This document shows, in pieces, positions 15,152 to 44,188 of a stretch of DNA of 48,773 bases; the stretch's first letter is position 1; every line of letters begins with the position of its first letter. The position numbers and the translations under genes were made by a program. The stretch comes from Candidatus Heimdallarchaeota archaeon. Its GTDB lineage: Archaea > Asgardarchaeota > Heimdallarchaeia > Heimdallarchaeales > Kariarchaeaceae. The notes under the pieces were generated by a model. The model saw only the letters and a program-made list of their open reading frames with translations, was not told where the DNA came from and did not search any database. The stretch lies in the NCBI GenBank assembly GCA_015523565.1, contig WAKA01000177.1, positions 1-48,773 of the forward strand. Direction: 5' to 3'.

Positions 15152-15718
15152 TTGGTTGTGTCAGACTTAATCAACAAGTACAGTCAAATCATTAGGGAAT
15201 TACTTATTGACTTGGGAATTACTAATAAGGAAGTACTGGAAAATACTCCAAAAAGATGGATTAAATTCTTGGAATCCTATTCAAAACCCCTGAAAAATGA
15301 TTTCAATGACTTTAAAACATTTCCTAATGCATCCGATGATATGGTTATAGCAGAAACCCACTTTTGGTCGATTTGTGAGCACCATCTCCTCCCATTTTTC
15401 GGAAAAGTATACTTCGGCTATATTCCAGACCAAAAAGTACTTGGAATTAGCAAAATTGTAAGATATATTCAATATACCTCAAAACAGCCATCCATCCAGG
15501 AAGAACTTACACAAAAAATTGCAGATACACTTTTTGAAAAGTCCAATGCAAAGGGGGCAATGGTATTGATCAAAGCATTTCATACATGTGTGGCTTCCAG
15601 ATATAGCAATGGTTGGATGACCACGTCTGCAATCAGGGGCATGTTCAGGGAGAACAAGACTCTAAAAAATGAGTTTCTCTCTTTGGTACATCAATCAAAA
15701 TTTGAAATGCTCGAATAG
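15152..15718 (+). CDS. folE: GTP cyclohydrolase I (FolE, type IA)
   Basis: ENTPKR, SICEHHLLPFFG, GISKIVR, IQEELT, HTC zinc ligand; TTG start. Confidence 0.92.
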   Translation: MVVSDLINKYSQIIRELLIDLGITNKEVLENTPKRWIKFLESYSKPLKNDFNDFKTFPNASDDMVIAETHFWSICEHHLLPFFGKVYFGYIPDQKVLGISKIVRYIQYTSKQPSIQEELTQKIADTLFEKSNAKGAMVLIKAFHTCVASRYSNGWMTTSAIRGMFRENKTLKNEFLSLVHQSKFEMLE

Positions 15719-15770
15719 TATGGTTTGGAAGTCCTTTTATTTGATATGGACTATTTCATTAACGAGACAA

Positions 15771-16610
15771 ATGAAACTCTTGCAATTGTCAATCCTTCTT
15801 TTTCTTCTTGCCCTATCAACATTCGTTAATGGTCAGCAATCCACCACCTTGTGGCCTGCGGGAATAGACTATACCTTGACTTATGCAGAAGACTTGAACA
15901 TTGAATTCTTCAATGCTTCTCTTTCACAGAAGAATTTGCCCATAGTTTTCAATGTCACTGAACTTAACAACACTGGCTACAAATATTTCCTGCAAGGGAA
16001 TGTGTCAAATGAATACAGTGTGAAAATGGACATTATACAAATTCCAAATCTCGGTGCCTTTGAAATTCCTGTTGGAGATTTGCCACTGTTTCTCCCATTG
16101 TCATTCAATGGAAAGGAGGATTGGATGGACTCATTTGGTTCCCAATTGCAAATACTCGGTGGATTCATTAATAATCTCAATAACAGCATTATTGTTGGAT
16201 CAAACATTACAATTACAAATGAGGAGATTATCTTTGCACTGTCTGCCTCATTTGACAATATCTCTTTTATAAATATCAATCAAAATTTCGAGAACTATTT
16301 ACAATTTTTGCCTTTAGATATATTTACAAACCAAAATTATACCCTGTTTAAGGCATCTGTTTTTACAAACTTCACTTATTCAAAAAGCTCTGGCATTCTG
16401 CAAAGCTTTGAGGTGAAAATTACATCTGCAAACGTGACAGATCTCTTGACCAATTATTCAAATCCATTGATCTATCAGGCACTTACCTTTGTCGCAGTTC
16501 TCCCTCCATTTGGCTCTTCAGGTCTATTTGACTCACCACTTCCAGTTTTACCCATGGTCTTTATTCTTCTTGTACTCACAAGAAGATTAAGGAAGAAATC
16601 TCTTTTCTAA
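15771..16610 (+). CDS. Secreted glycoprotein with C-terminal membrane anchor / putative sorting signal
   Basis: From ATG 15771, MKLLQLSILLFLLALSTFVNG is a signal peptide; numerous sequons; C-terminus SPLPVLPMVFILLVLTRRLRKK (motif, TM, basic cluster). Confidence 0.7.
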   Translation: MKLLQLSILLFLLALSTFVNGQQSTTLWPAGIDYTLTYAEDLNIEFFNASLSQKNLPIVFNVTELNNTGYKYFLQGNVSNEYSVKMDIIQIPNLGAFEIPVGDLPLFLPLSFNGKEDWMDSFGSQLQILGGFINNLNNSIIVGSNITITNEEIIFALSASFDNISFININQNFENYLQFLPLDIFTNQNYTLFKASVFTNFTYSKSSGILQSFEVKITSANVTDLLTNYSNPLIYQALTFVAVLPPFGSSGLFDSPLPVLPMVFILLVLTRRLRKKSLF

Positions 16611-19846: not shown

Positions 19847-19913
19847 TGTTTTTTTCACAATGCTAATACCTAAGGTTAAAAAGGAGTTTTGCAACTATAC
19901 ATATTAGGGACTT

Positions 19914-20675
19914 ATGTCAAATTTTGAAAAAAAATCAGAAAGCTTGATTTCAGGGTTAATTGTTGTGGTAGTTAAGGAAATGGGTCCTGAAGTCGTATGT
20001 AACATTTCTCCAATTAATGACGACTTGGCTTTCATCACTTCCGCCCATCTGTTTTCATTGGCTGGTCTAATGGAAAATCAAGAAAAAGATGAACGAGAAG
20101 TTATTGGACCTATCCCCGTTAAAAACACTCCGGGTATCAGGGCACTTTTCTTCTTGACTAATGTAAATCATCCAAATTCAGACGACCAAAGGCTGGCTGA
20201 CCATGGTGCACAATTGGGGATAATTCTTTTGTTCAAGGAGGATCGGCTTCCAGAAATCAGAAGGGCAATAGGTCTAATAGAACCTTATCTCAAGTCTTAC
20301 TTTAATAGGTATGATAATTTTAGTGTTGAGGATATAGATTTGCTATTTGGAAACAAGTTATTTGACCATATTGTTGAATTGGTCTCAAAACCACGGACAA
20401 GGGCATTTTGGTATCAACCCCCCAATAAACTCATTGAATACAAAGACCCCTTTTACATAGACAAATCCAAAGACATAATCATTGTTGATGAATATGAAAA
20501 ACAGGCTTATATCTTGACCTCTCCAACCACCTCACCTTTTGAAGCCCGAAAATTAAACAATACCGTGAATGAGATGAACTTCGAACTTTACCGGGGTGCC
20601 TTGGGCATCCAAAAAATGGATGACTTTATGGAAATAGAGCCTATCTTGATAAAATATGGAATTAAGACTTATTAG
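19914..20675 (+). CDS. Longin/uDENN-like domain fused to putative gelsolin-like domain
   Basis: N-half: LIVVVVKEMGPE...VIGPIPV...RALFF...DQR...GIILLF, homologous to the C-terminus of 42908..44188. C-half pattern RAFWY...DIIIVDE..KQAYI...SPFEARK...YRG..IQKMDD..EIE resembles a gelsolin repeat. Confidence 0.55.
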   Translation: MSNFEKKSESLISGLIVVVVKEMGPEVVCNISPINDDLAFITSAHLFSLAGLMENQEKDEREVIGPIPVKNTPGIRALFFLTNVNHPNSDDQRLADHGAQLGIILLFKEDRLPEIRRAIGLIEPYLKSYFNRYDNFSVEDIDLLFGNKLFDHIVELVSKPRTRAFWYQPPNKLIEYKDPFYIDKSKDIIIVDEYEKQAYILTSPTTSPFEARKLNNTVNEMNFELYRGALGIQKMDDFMEIEPILIKYGIKTY

Positions 20676-21908: not shown

Positions 21909-22661
21909 TTAGGTATTTTTCAAGAGTGTTTCTAGTTTTTGGCAGAATTCTCCAAATATTTCTGTTGTTTTTTCTTTTTGTGTTGGGTTTATGACTGCCT
22001 GACCTAAAATAAAAAATTCTGTATTATTCAGTCGGTTAATCAGTAAAATTTCTTTTGCAAGTTCATTGTTCAATTGGAAAATTGATGATTCTCCAACCCA
22101 TGTCCTATCAATCGGCAATTGCGATAGAATTTCCATCAAAAGCATGACCTTATCTTCATTCCCTAAATAAACGTGAATTATCCCGTCATCTAGATCAGTG
22201 AGTAACAAAGTTTCAAATTCTATTCCATCATATGTCAACAATTTGTCTATATAGCTGAAAGTTTTTGGCAACAGCTCTTCTGGAAATTGATATGTGTCCA
22301 AAATCCTTTTAATATGTTTCTCCACTTCTTCAGATGGTGACCAATCGAACAAGGTTTCTATTGTAATTTCTTTACCCAAAAAATCCATTACGTTTGACAG
22401 TTTCTTTGAAATTAACTCTTGATTGTCAAAAATGTCACTGAATGCAATGTATTGAACACCATTCTTGCTTGAGACTGTTATTCTTAATGAGCCAATGTCC
22501 GCTCCCCTGAAATCAAGATCAGAAGAAAGAGTTCCTGTAAAAAGAAGTAATGCCCCAACAAGACCAGAAAGCAACGATGGATCCACCTTTATGGTCTTAT
22601 CATCGTACAAATCAAAACCTAATCCCGAATCTTTATCCATAACCAAAATTTTATGGATCAT
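21909..22661 (-). CDS. Tandem longin/roadblock-like domain protein (putative small-GTPase regulator)
   Basis: From ATG 22661: MIHKILVMDKDSGL...DPSLLSGLVGALLLF...YIAFSD.FD..ELI.KKL is a longin pattern; a second alpha/beta unit follows (ETLLLTDLDDGII...FFILGQA...FGEFCQKLETLL). The ORF-track extension to 22763 looks like intergenic DNA. Confidence 0.65.
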   Translation of the reverse strand: MIHKILVMDKDSGLGFDLYDDKTIKVDPSLLSGLVGALLLFTGTLSSDLDFRGADIGSLRITVSSKNGVQYIAFSDIFDNQELISKKLSNVMDFLGKEITIETLFDWSPSEEVEKHIKRILDTYQFPEELLPKTFSYIDKLLTYDGIEFETLLLTDLDDGIIHVYLGNEDKVMLLMEILSQLPIDRTWVGESSIFQLNNELAKEILLINRLNNTEFFILGQAVINPTQKEKTTEIFGEFCQKLETLLKNT

Positions 22662-22837
22662 CTTGAATTGTTTTGTTTTTTTCCTTAATAAACTAGCCGA
22701 AAGAATAATCCCCACGACAAATTTAATATAAAAATTAAATTGAAAATAAAATGAAAAATTCATCTCTCTCGGTAATTTTGACCTCTCTGGAAATCACTTA
22801 AACAAGCTTTTTTAATTATAAATCCATTAAAAATTCG

Positions 22838-23821
22838 TTGAATAACACTATTCATGGCTCCGAATGGGAAGACTATCTTGATAGTCTGTATGATTGGGTT
22901 AATTCAAGATTGACAGCCTACCAAGAAGGAGAAATTTCTAAAGAGGAATATTACAAGGATTATGATTATTTTAAAATGGAACTGAAAAGGGTTTATTCGA
23001 TTATAGAGGATGAAAGAAAAAGAAGAGAAAAAAATCCTACGGAAAAAATTGAACCACAGGTGATTAAACCAGATCTGATATTCCAGTATTTTTATGGAGA
23101 GGAAAAGAAAGAAATTATTGAAGAGGACAGCAAGGAAACTATTTCTGAAATCCCTGAAGAATCCATTCAGGCACAGGAAAAAATTGTGGAAAGCCAATCT
23201 CAAAAACCACTCTTTGAGGCTATTAAAAAAGTACAATCCAAGAAAAAGCATACCCCAACAAATCAGAATTATACCCAAATCCAAATTGTTTTGCTAGGCG
23301 AAAGTGCTGTTGGTAGAACATCTTTAAGGAGAGCTTTCTTGGGAAAACATTTCATCAATGAACACTTAAGTACTGTTGGCGCTGCTATGGAGGATAAAAT
23401 CATAACTGTAGAAAACGAACATTTCAAGATTACTCTGGTGGATCTGGGAGGACAAGATTTTTATGCGCCTGTCCGTGCCAATTTCTACAAAAAAGCCAAT
23501 GGGGCTCTTCTTGTGTTTGATTTAAGCAGAAAAAACACGTTCATTAAATTGGATTCTTGGTTGAGAGAATTCTTTATGCATACAAAACGCGGTCTCCCAT
23601 TCATCATTGTTGGAAACAAATCAGATCTAAAAAGGGCAGTGAAGAGAGAAGAGGGGATACAACTTGCCGAAAGCTTGAGTAGGCAGACAATGCATGCAGG
23701 ATTTGAAGTGAAATATTTTGAGACATCCGCAAAAGAGAGAATAAATGTTGATGAGGTATTTCTTGAACTAATCAGACAAATCAAGCATTTTAATCATGGG
23801 AAAAAACAAATGTCAAATTAG
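22838..23821 (+). CDS. Rab-like small GTPase with about 145-aa charged N-terminal extension and atypical P-loop
   Basis: G1 GESAVGRTS, G2 STVG, G3 DLGGQ, G4 NKSD, G5 ETSAK; no C-terminal Cys. TTG start uncertain. Confidence 0.9.
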   Translation: MNNTIHGSEWEDYLDSLYDWVNSRLTAYQEGEISKEEYYKDYDYFKMELKRVYSIIEDERKRREKNPTEKIEPQVIKPDLIFQYFYGEEKKEIIEEDSKETISEIPEESIQAQEKIVESQSQKPLFEAIKKVQSKKKHTPTNQNYTQIQIVLLGESAVGRTSLRRAFLGKHFINEHLSTVGAAMEDKIITVENEHFKITLVDLGGQDFYAPVRANFYKKANGALLVFDLSRKNTFIKLDSWLREFFMHTKRGLPFIIVGNKSDLKRAVKREEGIQLAESLSRQTMHAGFEVKYFETSAKERINVDEVFLELIRQIKHFNHGKKQMSN

Positions 23822-23891: not shown

Positions 23892-24989
23892 ATGTCTGCT
23901 CCTGAGTTTACTTTCATCAATGCAATGTTGTTTGCCTCCAAATTTTTTACCGTCTTGCTCCCCACCTATCTAATTATTCGATTTTTAATGCCACGTATCC
24001 CCAAACTTGGAAAAATTCCTGTATTGAAAACAATGATGCTTCCATCTGACTTGTCAAAAAGGATTTTCTTTGTTTTCTCATTTTCCATGTTTGCAGTCAT
24101 TGTTGTTTTGTTTGCTGTGATTTTGCCTAGTTCCAATACAATTGACGATTGGACACTTGCAGTCACTCTCACTGTGACAATCATAGTAGTAACATTGTTC
24201 CTTTCAGGCGGTTTCGAACGTTCTGTCTCTCAGCCACTTAGGTCTGTTGCATTGCAATCAGCCGAATTTGCAGACAAAAATCTAGCTGCAAAAGTGAAAT
24301 TGTCTGATAGTGGTTTTGGAGAAGCTAGAAAACTGGTTAATGCCAATCGCCAATTAGCTAATGTGTTTCGTACACTAATCACTAACATGAAAGACACCAC
24401 CAATAGACTTGCAGAATCTGCTGAAGAATTGGCCGCTGGTTCCGAGGAAGTTGCCGCGACTACTGAGGAAGTGACCAGCACCATTCAGAACATCGCGGAA
24501 GGTGCCGCCGAACAAGTACGCCAAATCAATCAGATTTCTGAAATCATTAAAGAAATAGAAAACATTATTGAAATCTCTATTTCTGAAATTGCATCCACAT
24601 CAAGCATAACAAAGGATCTTGCAGAGCAGACAAATCTCATTTCCCTCAATGCCGCCATAGAAGCTGCAAGGGCAGGAGCAAGCGGACAAGGATTTGGTGT
24701 GGTGGCTGACCAAGTCAGAAAACTGTCAATTGAATCAAAAAATGCATCTGCATCCATTGAAAATACAATCACTGAAATTGGTGAAAATATAAAGGAATCT
24801 GTGGCTCGCATTGCACACGCAGTTAATACCATTCAAGGAGTGGCAGAAAACACTGCGGCATCATCTGAGGAAGCCGCGGCAGCAGCGGAAGAACAGGCGG
24901 CATCACTTCAAGAGATAACAGAGCATGCTCAAAAATTGTCGGAGCTGGCAGATAAGTCACAGGCTATAATCAATGAATGGAAAATTTGA
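23892..24989 (+). CDS. Methyl-accepting chemotaxis protein lacking an extracellular sensor domain (about 3 TM, HAMP, short signalling domain)
   Basis: Three hydrophobic segments, HAMP-like region, tip QTNLISLNAAIEAARAGASGQGFGVVADQVRKLS, multiple AEE/SEE/EEQ methylation-type sites. Confidence 0.93.
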   Translation: MSAPEFTFINAMLFASKFFTVLLPTYLIIRFLMPRIPKLGKIPVLKTMMLPSDLSKRIFFVFSFSMFAVIVVLFAVILPSSNTIDDWTLAVTLTVTIIVVTLFLSGGFERSVSQPLRSVALQSAEFADKNLAAKVKLSDSGFGEARKLVNANRQLANVFRTLITNMKDTTNRLAESAEELAAGSEEVAATTEEVTSTIQNIAEGAAEQVRQINQISEIIKEIENIIEISISEIASTSSITKDLAEQTNLISLNAAIEAARAGASGQGFGVVADQVRKLSIESKNASASIENTITEIGENIKESVARIAHAVNTIQGVAENTAASSEEAAAAAEEQAASLQEITEHAQKLSELADKSQAIINEWKI

Positions 24990-26410: not shown

Positions 26411-27841
26411 ATGGATGTTCGATGGGTTGAAAACAGGAAAGTCATAGTCATCGATGATTCCCTTTACCAACGGGAATTACTTTTCAGTCAACTGACAAAG
26501 GATGGTTATGATGTTGTTGGTTTGGCTGAAAATGCAAAAGATGGGCTTCGAATGGTGGGAACCCAACGACCTAACATTGTCATACTTGATATTTCTCTAC
26601 CTGACATGCCTACAGACGAAATTATTCGGGGTCTCAGATCACTTTTGCCAAATGTCTTTATTATTGTCTCTGCTCCTTTGGGAATGGAGGAAAATATCCA
26701 TTATCTCATAAGGGTGGGTGCCAACGAGTTCTTACCGAAACCTATCGAAAAATCCCACTTGGATTATATTTTGGTGAAATATGAAATTACAAATTTCCCT
26801 GAAAATACAAATCTTGCATTTGTCATCAATTTTCTTCACCAGCTTTATTATACGCAACTTATTCAGTTTGCAGATGATGAATACGAAAAAATAATCAAGA
26901 GGGTTCTCATCAGGAATTTCAAAAACATGGTTCGAAAATATCCTGAACGATTTATTTTCTATGAAAATCCCTTGAAACTGGACGTGGTTCTTTCATATAA
27001 TAAGAAAATTCCTGTACAGCTTGAAAAGGTTATAATCAGGCAAATTGAAAATCTGTTCCAAAGAAATTTGAATGACTTGGAAAAGAAGATACCGTTGGAG
27101 ATACTTCAATCACTCCTTCAAGAAAGCTTTATGTCATATTATTCTCTTGCAAAACCATTCATTGATGCTTTTGATTATTCGCTTCCTGAATGGAAAAATT
27201 TCAAATTCAAGATTGTCAGACCATCCCCTCCGATGCAAACAGAAAGGCAAAAGTTGCAATATATCTCAAATACTGAATTTTCATGGCCTGACATCCCAAT
27301 CAGTCCAGAAATTGAAAGAATAAACGCATACCGCTTTGAAAATGAAAGAGGTCTTGCATCATTAAAGGAATTGAAATGGAAAAATGATGTCAATGCTTTT
27401 GTTGGTCTCGCAATGTTCGATGAAATTTTAGGTCCTGTAATGGCTCAAGTTACCCCCTCGGTTGTCCCCGAATTCATGGAAGATACAATGAAAATCATTC
27501 CCAGCCTTATGGATCGGCAAGGACTCAAGGATATGGAACCATTTTTGCACTCCGAAAGTGATTTTGGATCTCTAAATATCGTATTTTCTGTAAGATCTGA
27601 AAAGATGAGGGGAATGTCTCTCGATCTCATGCTTTCCATAATTGTCTCTCCAATTTCTGCAAATCATCTACTCAAACTAAGCCAAATGAGTGGAATTCTA
27701 AAAGCAACCGCCGCCCAAATCCTCTATCATCTTTCTGAAAGTGATGTTGCCGATCCTGTAAGTGCAATCAAATTGAAATCAGATATTCCAGACCTTCTCA
27801 ATGTATTTCTCCACGAAGTGAGAACATTTTTGGAATATTAG
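26411..27841 (+). CDS. Response regulator: CheY-like receiver + helical linker + C-terminal uDENN/longin-like domain
   Basis: REC residues VIDD, ILDISLP, IVS and PKP intact; C-terminal FVGLAMFDEILGP...IPSLMD...NIVFSVRSEKMRG...LMLSIIV matches the FDxxxGP / RG pattern of uDENN (DENN/folliculin) longins. Confidence 0.75.
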   Translation: MDVRWVENRKVIVIDDSLYQRELLFSQLTKDGYDVVGLAENAKDGLRMVGTQRPNIVILDISLPDMPTDEIIRGLRSLLPNVFIIVSAPLGMEENIHYLIRVGANEFLPKPIEKSHLDYILVKYEITNFPENTNLAFVINFLHQLYYTQLIQFADDEYEKIIKRVLIRNFKNMVRKYPERFIFYENPLKLDVVLSYNKKIPVQLEKVIIRQIENLFQRNLNDLEKKIPLEILQSLLQESFMSYYSLAKPFIDAFDYSLPEWKNFKFKIVRPSPPMQTERQKLQYISNTEFSWPDIPISPEIERINAYRFENERGLASLKELKWKNDVNAFVGLAMFDEILGPVMAQVTPSVVPEFMEDTMKIIPSLMDRQGLKDMEPFLHSESDFGSLNIVFSVRSEKMRGMSLDLMLSIIVSPISANHLLKLSQMSGILKATAAQILYHLSESDVADPVSAIKLKSDIPDLLNVFLHEVRTFLEY

Positions 27842-42907: not shown

Positions 42908-44188
42908 GTGGCATCTCAAGTCAAATGTATTGTAATAGATGATTCTCTATTCGTAAGAAAAACACTCGTCTCACTTATTTCAAGTTTGGGTCATCAAGTT
43001 GTCGGCGAATTTGGGAATGCGGAGGATGCATTGGTTGCCATTCCTGACACAGATCATGATATAATCTTCCTTGATATCATTCTTCCAAATATTTCTGGTT
43101 TGGAAGCCCTAAAAATGATATTGTCCCAAAACAAAGATGAAAAGGTAATAGTCCTGTCTGGTTTGGGTGATGAAGATGTAATTAACGCCGCTCTGCAATT
43201 GGGGGCTATAGACTATATCCAAAAGCCAATTGATGAAATACAACTCAGACGCGTTTTTGAAAGGATAATTGAATCATATTTTATTCCTGACGCAGTTACC
43301 CTTTCAAAAATAGAGGCAACTGCAAAACTTGTCTCAATTTTCTTTGATGAACTTCTATCAATTGCAACATATCAGGTTCGAAGAGTCATCAAATCCCAAA
43401 TTGATTCACTTTTTTTAAACCCACCAGAAATCATCCCTAAAATGTTTAAGTTGGATCCAGAAAATTTCGGCATAACAACCAATGAGGAAATCTTTGGAAT
43501 TTATGAAGAAGAAGAGGTGATTTATGCATTAAACGGCTTTATTGAGATCCTAAAAAATGAACTTTCATACATTTATTCAGAGGATTTCATCAATCGTCTT
43601 TTTCAGTCTGCTATGCTGGCAATTGCCTCAAAACCCAGAACCGCAAAACTTGTTGCATTCGTAAATCCCGAAGAAATTGGAATTCCCCTTCCTGATAAGG
43701 TAAATTATGATCAATTTAAATTTTATTTACAAAAATCCCAATTGCAAATTGAGGATAATCTCCTGTTGGCAACAGTGTTTTTTGGATCAATAGGTCCAGA
43801 AATGAAAAACAGGATTGGAAATGAAGAAATGGTGCCTGAGAATACCATAGTTAAATCTTCAATTTTCTATTTCACCTTGGTTGGATTTGGAAACGAGAAA
43901 AAAGGTCTTTTCGGCCCCTTACCTGTTTCAGATCTAAATGATGTATCTGCTGTATTTTTTTCCCTTTATCCATTGGAAGATGAAAACAATCCCAATCCTA
44001 TTAGTACAATACTTATCCTATTCTACAGGTATACCGCGGATAAGATTGTTGAGGATATTAATAAGCTGAACTTTATCTTTAGAACACGGCTTGGCAATGT
44101 AAAATATTTGGGTGATATTTCCAAACCGATTTTGAGGGGAATAATGGAGGATTTGGTTGAATATTATAGAGAAATAGAAAATGCTTGA
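42908..44188 (+). CDS. Response regulator: CheY-like receiver + helical linker + C-terminal longin/uDENN-like domain
   Basis: REC residues VIDDS, FLDIILP, VLSG and QKP intact; C-terminal FFGSIGPE...YFTLVG...GLFGPLPV...SAVFF...ILILFY homologous to the N-half of 19914..20675; GTG start. Confidence 0.75.
   Translation: MASQVKCIVIDDSLFVRKTLVSLISSLGHQVVGEFGNAEDALVAIPDTDHDIIFLDIILPNISGLEALKMILSQNKDEKVIVLSGLGDEDVINAALQLGAIDYIQKPIDEIQLRRVFERIIESYFIPDAVTLSKIEATAKLVSIFFDELLSIATYQVRRVIKSQIDSLFLNPPEIIPKMFKLDPENFGITTNEEIFGIYEEEEVIYALNGFIEILKNELSYIYSEDFINRLFQSAMLAIASKPRTAKLVAFVNPEEIGIPLPDKVNYDQFKFYLQKSQLQIEDNLLLATVFFGSIGPEMKNRIGNEEMVPENTIVKSSIFYFTLVGFGNEKKGLFGPLPVSDLNDVSAVFFSLYPLEDENNPNPISTILILFYRYTADKIVEDINKLNFIFRTRLGNVKYLGDISKPILRGIMEDLVEYYREIENA

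Follow-up and report, generated by a model that had tools for sequence, protein, structure and literature searches.

The window, by which we mean the whole stretch of 48,773 nucleotides that was analyzed, contains on its forward strand an open reading frame at 19914..20675 (stop codon included) that encodes a 253-amino-acid (aa) protein with a longin domain followed by a gelsolin-fold domain. The reading frame was confirmed, and the motifs that an earlier note on this DNA had quoted from this protein and from the response regulator encoded at 42908..44188 were found in both proteins. Pfam gave no match to the 253-aa protein, even at E values up to 1, and assigned no family to any of 29 relatives. 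The region directly upstream (19847..19913, + strand), which was read by eye, has a T-run 3' of the gene before it and, about 15 to 30 nucleotides ahead of the ATG, an A/T-rich, TATA-like stretch; judging from these letters, the gene may have a promoter of its own.

In order, this part of the window encodes a 610-aa protein, the longin-gelsolin protein, a coiled-coil protein, a 284-aa protein, a Rab-like GTPase, an MCP, and enolase. Only two genomes, both of the same genus, retain this order, and we therefore rejected the five-gene cluster of the window as a conserved functional unit. The nearest small GTPase is the Ras/Rab-like protein of 327 aa encoded 2.2 kb downstream (22838..23821, + strand; Pfam Ras, 9.7e-40), which is a candidate client of the longin-gelsolin protein. 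This GTPase has an N-terminal extension of approximately 145 aa, and its P-loop reads G-E-S-A-V-G-R-T-S, with Arg replacing the expected Lys. The sole neighbor conserved beyond the genus is a 313-aa protein without a Pfam family (15669-16610), which, in different genera of the window's family, is encoded close to the longin-gelsolin gene (relatives at L064:7051-7857 and L065:7130-7915). Elsewhere in the order, the closest ortholog from another family (L066:6038-10946) lies between MCP-like and CheR methyltransferase genes, neighbors that echo the MCP gene at 23892-24989 of the window.

A longin domain joined to a gelsolin-fold domain

An AlphaFold2 model built from a 29-sequence alignment (mean pLDDT, 89.3; pTM, 0.67) divides the protein into two domains. 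The first, at residues ~10-158 (19941..20387, + strand), was delimited from the secondary structure of the model, a fold scan, and Foldseek; it has the longin topology of two strands, a helix, three strands, and a helix across residues 14-132, followed by an extra helix at residues 143-158. In the fold scan, VIA, which covers 48,161 PDB chains and is independent of Foldseek, the longin half matched the longin domain of a Lokiarchaeal Roadblock-Longin protein (8yqg_B; Z, 12.3; 140 residues aligned), the C9orf72-SMCR8 complex (7o2w_A; Z, 10.8; 142 residues), the Lst4 longin (4zy8_C; Z, 10.7; 130 residues), the FLCN-FNIP2 complex (6nzd_H; Z, 10.3; 133 residues), and a chain of GATOR1 (8fw5_B; Z, 9.6; 132 residues), while the longins of adaptin sigma, SNARE, TRAPP, and Mon1-Ccz1 proteins, together with Roadblock proteins, gave Z scores of 7 to 9. 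Foldseek also matched this half to 8yqg (E, 1e-4). The best matches are therefore an Asgard longin and then the eukaryotic GAP longins, in agreement with the proposal that the N-terminal half is longin/uDENN-like, and its assignment to the FLCN/SMCR8/NPRL2 (uDENN) type of longin is supported.

The second domain, at residues ~159-253 (20388..20672, + strand), was recognized by a profile match, VIA, and Foldseek; in the model, residues 162-247 comprise a small sheet, a long helix (208-226), and a short one. Its best match in VIA was Thorarchaeota ProGel on actin (7c2f_D; Z, 11.9; rmsd, 2.2 Å; 86 of 88 residues), with adseverin at a Z score of 11.0 and gelsolin at 10.6; across gelsolin, villin, adseverin, fragmin, and the Loki/Heimdall 2DGel domains, Z scores ranged from 9 to 11. 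Foldseek returned 7c2f_B (E, 3e-4; TM, 0.76), so that its matches to both halves, 8yqg and 7c2f_B, agreed with those of VIA. Independently of the model, the family profile matched the sequence of ProGel 7c2f_B over residues 158-249 (E, 1e-5), with villin at an E value of 0.09, and hhalign placed the genome's own gelsolins in the correct register but weakly (E, 0.05 and 0.14). The language-model neighbors of the C-terminal part, which at scores of 0.87 to 0.88 are leads only, were Asgard clusters of ~94 to 104 aa, one of them with PF00626 in 28% of its members. The start of the gelsolin-like domain had been put at about 20393 (residue ~160), a boundary that agrees with the model and with the fold matches (161-249).

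It could be argued that the two-domain appearance is a modeling artifact, or that the gene is nonfunctional, since Pfam has no family for the protein. We consider this scarcely credible given the pLDDT of the model, the model-independent match to the ProGel sequence, and a full-length architecture that is maintained throughout the class with its frames intact.

Gelsolin fold and actin

Asgard gelsolins are known in the architectures ProGel, 1DGelX, and 2DGel, and the DWG motif of gelsolins corresponds to W-x-G (PMC7444086). In the longin-gelsolin protein, the strand before the long helix reads Y-I-L-T-S, versus Y-L-W-R-G in ProGel, and no Trp was present in the W-x-G column in any of 49 family members, so that the absence of this motif, already noticed from the one sequence, extends to the family. 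The Pfam Gelsolin model (PF00626) matched 0 of 29 members, and the 8-kb flanks of 20 family loci contained no homologue of the genome's actin or gelsolins. The window's genome has a single, conserved actin gene (contig C57) and also encodes a gelsolin with two domains. In a related genome, the actin gene (G042:C275:2869-4002; L035) has one in-frame TAG within a full-length, 84%-identical match.

These observations bear on the proposal that the gelsolin-fold domain binds actin, on the monomer or the filament side in the manner of ProGel or cofilin, and so either places the longin on the cytoskeleton or puts actin dynamics under GTPase control. Such a role is conceivable because ProGel, the nearest relative of the domain by both structure and sequence, was solved on actin and contacts it in the crystal (PMC7444086); moreover, the higher-ranking gelsolin-fold matches in VIA are all actin binders, an actin and a gelsolin are available in the genome, and the language-model neighbors provide a further lead. 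However, the binding of ProGel itself to actin is very weak (Kd, ~337 μM; PMC7444086), the W-x-G motif is missing throughout the family, similarity to the genome's gelsolins and to the Pfam model is weak or absent, and the family loci are free of actin and gelsolin genes. We therefore regard actin binding by this domain as doubtful, and the view that the protein is an actin regulator on a route from signal to cytoskeleton found no support beyond fold homology.

Conserved motifs of the longin half

Residue conservation was scored across 49 distinct members of the family. The GP motif, G24-P25 (19983..19988, + strand), opens strand 2 (24-31) and is invariant in 49/49 members. In strand 3, a G-P-x-P motif (G65..P68; 20106..20117, + strand; G65, 100%; P68, 98%) aligns with the G-P-L-P of the response regulator. 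The loop before strand 5 (99-108) holds D91-x-R93 (20184..20192, + strand; D91, 98%; R93, 96%), a candidate arginine finger, and G98 is conserved at 92%. The gelsolin half is less conserved than G24-P25, D91, and R93 of the longin: its best residue is L245 (90%), followed by D192 and N222 (82% each), E175 (80%), and R163 (69%).

A GP motif at the entry to strand 2, adjoining the arginine finger, is found specifically in the catalytic longins FLCN, NPRL2, SMCR8, and C9orf72 and is absent from non-GAP longins, and both the motif and the arginine have been reported in a class of Heimdallarchaeial longins (PMC12290439). The position of G24-P25 fits the GP motif as defined for GAP longins in that study. 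If the alignment is gap free, with model residue 6 placed on chain residue 20, G24-P25 would correspond to G38-P39 of C9orf72. By its place in the topology, rather than by residue-level superposition, R93 may be the equivalent of FLCN R164, SMCR8 R147, and NPRL2 R78, the last of which we take to lie in the loop just ahead of the last strand.

GEF activity is a commoner function of longins than GAP activity (PMC12290439), and longins serve as GEF platforms or adaptors more often than as GAPs, which speaks for an alternative in which the domain is a GEF, senses the nucleotide state, or serves as an adaptor, in the manner of Mon1-Ccz1, DENN, TRAPP, and the adaptin sigma subunits; the matches to the Mon1-Ccz1, TRAPP, AP sigma, and SNARE longins would fit such a role. 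These non-GAP longins nevertheless score lower than the GAP-longin group and, as noted above, lack the GP motif, whereas conservation in the present family is highest at GP and the arginine. A GEF or adaptor function is thus improbable, and because of the GP/Arg signature we favor GAP activity as the most likely function of the longin.

Other carriers of the longin module

The response regulator encoded at 42908..44188, in which Pfam recognizes a REC domain, carries a homologous longin at residues 291-416 (43778..44155, + strand), as determined by hhalign. A single BLASTP comparison of the two proteins gave 26% identity over 81 residues (E, 3e-4), and the 29-sequence family profile aligned residues 291-416 of the regulator to residues 18-151 with a probability of 92.6% (E, 4.6e-7). 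Given these low E values, the module common to the two proteins is real, and the homology between the N-terminal half and the output domain of the regulator, first suggested from motifs, is upheld. The regulator longin keeps GP and G-P-L-P and has no counterpart of D91-x-R93; because GP is kept and the arginine is missing, it resembles noncatalytic partner longins such as C9orf72. We might speculate that a heterodimer of the regulator longin and the longin-gelsolin protein would constitute a phospho-controlled GAP.

The genome has a single full-length copy of the longin-gelsolin gene. The same type of longin is also present in this genome in a second receiver-domain (REC) protein of 317 aa (L006:1477-2430, - strand), and it is found at the C termini of a 449-aa protein (L003:559-1908) and a 396-aa protein (L005:697-1887) that have no other recognized domains. 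Two further candidates were rejected as carriers: neither the 476-aa response regulator encoded at 26411-27841, its unassigned C-terminal half included, nor the 284-aa neighbor encoded at 21909-22763 had significant similarity to the family profile in hhalign.

Distribution of the family

A word-indexed search found five relatives with 49 to 80% identity, and a HMMER search of 1.84 billion representatives found 37 representative relatives at E values up to 1e-3, most of them ~250 aa long and aligned end to end. Some relatives are ~340 aa long with a C-terminal tail; in some paralogues, this tail of ~90 aa gave weak DDRGK/DmsR_N-type matches. Both halves are conserved together, and the two-domain build is therefore a trait of the family.

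In a profile search of 400 genomes of the phylum, 81 of the 82 genomes of the window's class had a family match; in 77 of the class genomes, the best E value was 2e-49 or better, and the matches listed at this level cover nearly the whole profile. There are several paralogues per genome, with at least six matching candidates in one genome. Outside the class, full-length matches were present in three genomes (G397, G398, and G399), of two further families; in five other nonclass genomes that were checked, the longin part alone matched, inside proteins of 470 to 900 aa. The earlier picture of one shuffled module thus needs to be divided: a common longin is indeed found in the regulator and in at least three other proteins, but the fusion to the gelsolin fold is old, class-wide, and rich in paralogues rather than a one-off event.

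A quick maximum-likelihood tree, in which long branches were flagged, resolved well-supported subfamilies and placed the window protein in clade f1 (100% SH-aLRT), apart from the clades with GTPase operons. In one paralogue subfamily, four genomes from the same genus (G060:C129:11574-12368, G065:C1:395917-396711, G056:C98:3455-4240, and G071:C30:8557-9345) each have one in-frame TAA within the matching region, which could reflect a pseudogene common to them, a gene that has been split, or read-through.

GTPase genes beside family members

We compared the regions within 8 kb on either side of 20 family genes, counting GTPases with a home-made GTPase HMM. There were 21 GTPase open reading frames within 2.5 kb of a family gene (12 of 20 loci), versus 3 at a distance of 2.5 to 8 kb; for scale, the 3.57-Mb genome of the window has ~25 matches to the Arf model. 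This genome also encodes a Gtr1/RagA-like protein (contig C120). Since related genomes are not independent, the loci were also counted by distinct context: a small-GTPase gene lay within 2.5 kb in 6 of 12 contexts and was directly adjacent in five. The adjacent GTPases are often pairs of the Arf/Rag-like type.

In f3 and f7, two other families of the window's class, the paralogue is the last gene of a tight, same-strand operon behind two Arf-like proteins of 320 to 340 aa, and in f7 a Ras-like gene then follows it; operons with Arf-like pairs were seen at L067:5971-8759, L068:5931-8735, L069:7989-10783, L073:5836-9469, and L074:5833-9491. In f5, of the same class, the paralogue comes after two Gtr1/RagA-like proteins, one of which scored weakly, and another Gtr1/RagA-like gene lies downstream; in f32, represented by a genome outside the class, it stands between Ras-like and Gtr1/RagA-like genes. 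Paralogues adjoin Gtr1/RagA-like GTPases at L072:7037-10843, L081:6045-9750, L078:6761-10021, and L070:7989-11114, the last of these loci having two long forms (341 to 345 aa, with the extra C-terminal tail) in tandem between HSP90 and Gtr1/RagA-like genes.

The operon GTPases of these paralogous subfamilies are 320 to 360 aa long and either Arf-like or Gtr1/RagA-like. The Arf-like partners matched Arf/Arl structures at E values of ~1e-36, and in a model of one of them (pLDDT, 75.8), a helix at the N terminus is followed by a G domain and then by a C-terminal domain with the order strand-strand-helix-strand-strand-strand-helix. The best fold match of this model was the Asgard protein HodArfR1, and the model matched the Lokiarchaeal RagA-like protein LokiRagO over its whole length. 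By the model, the Arf-like partners combine an Arf G domain with a C-terminal longin/roadblock-like domain, which is a Rag-type build.

The window's own subfamily, f1, has no directly adjacent GTPase gene; the Rab-like gene lies three genes away, in an arrangement confined to the genus. Across the family, GTPase genes lie close to the paralogues in half of the distinct contexts, and no actin or gelsolin gene was present within the 8 kb compared; the GTPase half of the earlier reading, a link between the longin and small GTPases, is therefore well supported and is strengthened further by the conserved GP/Arg motifs. The neighborhoods also bear on the C-terminal domain: with several paralogues in a genome, each tied to its own GTPase pair, a constant structural role is a better fit than actin binding. 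Because the gelsolin fold goes with every paralogue, whatever its GTPase partner, we favor a structural or partner-binding role over one on actin.

Discussion

In this study, we have described a family of longin-gelsolin proteins, of which the best explanation as a whole, to which we give a probability of roughly 0.55, is that they are regulators of small GTPases in which the longin is most likely a GAP and the gelsolin fold forms complexes or binds partners. That the longin regulates an Arf/Rag/Rab-like GTPase is suggested both by the residues that are conserved most strongly and by the genomic associations, and because the family is class-wide and often found beside Arf/Rag-like GTPase genes, it can be tested as a GTPase regulator. 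We postulate a two-domain regulator in which the longin, with its GP motif and conserved arginine, would most likely dock at the nucleotide pocket of a GTPase of the Arf/Rag/Rab-like kind and stimulate GTP hydrolysis, probably as a longin-longin dimer, while the gelsolin fold would occupy the place of the DENN domain in FLCN and SMCR8 or of the TINI/CTD part in NPRL2. For the gelsolin fold taken by itself, a role as the complex-forming or partner-binding module is the most likely one, at about even odds, and a classical actin-binding gelsolin is the less likely of the two and should be seen as a minority view.

The longin half has the same fold as FLCN, NPRL2, SMCR8, and the Heimdallarchaeial GP-motif longins (PMC12290439), with the GP motif ahead of strand 2 and, in the loop before the last strand, a conserved arginine that may be the equivalent of theirs. 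The clients of FLCN, NPRL2, and SMCR8, acting in folliculin, GATOR1, and the CSW complex (C9orf72-SMCR8-WDR41), are Arf and Rag GTPases, and the paralogues described here are tied genomically to the same classes. Unlike FLCN and SMCR8, which have a DENN domain, and NPRL2, which has a TINI domain and a winged-helix CTD, the present protein has neither arrangement, and its C-terminal partner is a gelsolin fold; it is also small, at 253 aa, and would be a GAP without a recognized second, noncatalytic longin subunit.

With the Asgard gelsolins ProGel, 1DGelX, and 2DGel (PMC7444086; PDB 7c2f, 7c2g, 7c2h, 7whg, and 7whf), the C-terminal half has in common a single gelsolin/cofilin-type domain of ~90 residues. 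It differs from them in lacking W-x-G/DWG, in scoring below the Pfam Gelsolin model, and in its position C-terminal to a longin, which is the reverse of the placement in 1DGelX, where the gelsolin domain comes first and a coiled-coil X domain follows. NPRL2-like longins fused to two-component domains have been described in Asgard archaea (Liu et al., 10.1101/2020.10.19.343400), and the regulator encoded at 42908-44188 and the second REC-longin protein are examples of the same type of longin module being recombined in this way. The portion of that text available to us describes receiver/two-component fusions and makes no mention of a fusion to a gelsolin fold. Among open-access papers and preprints, we found no description of a longin-gelsolin fusion.

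A gelsolin fold may also act on a GTPase directly. Sec23 contacts Sar1 through its gelsolin-like domain, which also provides a catalytic residue; Asgard Sec23-like proteins do not have this domain, while many other Asgard proteins do have gelsolin domains (PMC11914678). Together, these observations suggest that the gelsolin fold of the longin-gelsolin protein could be one that acts on a GTPase. Sec23, the Sar1 GAP of COPII, would resemble the present protein, a putative GAP, in having a gelsolin-fold domain within a GAP for an Arf-family GTPase, although the tie to a GTPase is here a genomic one; it differs in having four other domains and no longin. Sec23a (2nup_A) matched the gelsolin half in VIA (Z, 8.1; rmsd, 3.3; 86 residues) much more weakly than ProGel did. 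It can be envisioned that a FLCN-type arginine finger and a Sec23-type contact are combined in one small polypeptide, and that the family is a plausible source of the gelsolin domain that the Asgard Sec23-like proteins lack; this must be counted a long shot.

At the lysosomes of eukaryotes, Rag and Arf GTPases are controlled by the longin GAPs FLCN, GATOR1, and C9orf72-SMCR8, whose origin has yet to be explained. The GP-motif longins of Heimdallarchaeia were recently reported without partners or architecture. Here, a longin of this kind is shown to be part of a family that spans the class, is rich in paralogues, and always has a gelsolin-fold domain, and whole subfamilies of this family share operons with paired Arf-like or Rag-like GTPases of Rag-type build. 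If the gelsolin fold binds actin, the family would represent a very early coupling of GTPase switching and the cytoskeleton within a single protein; if it binds the GTPase, the family would provide a parallel to Sec23.
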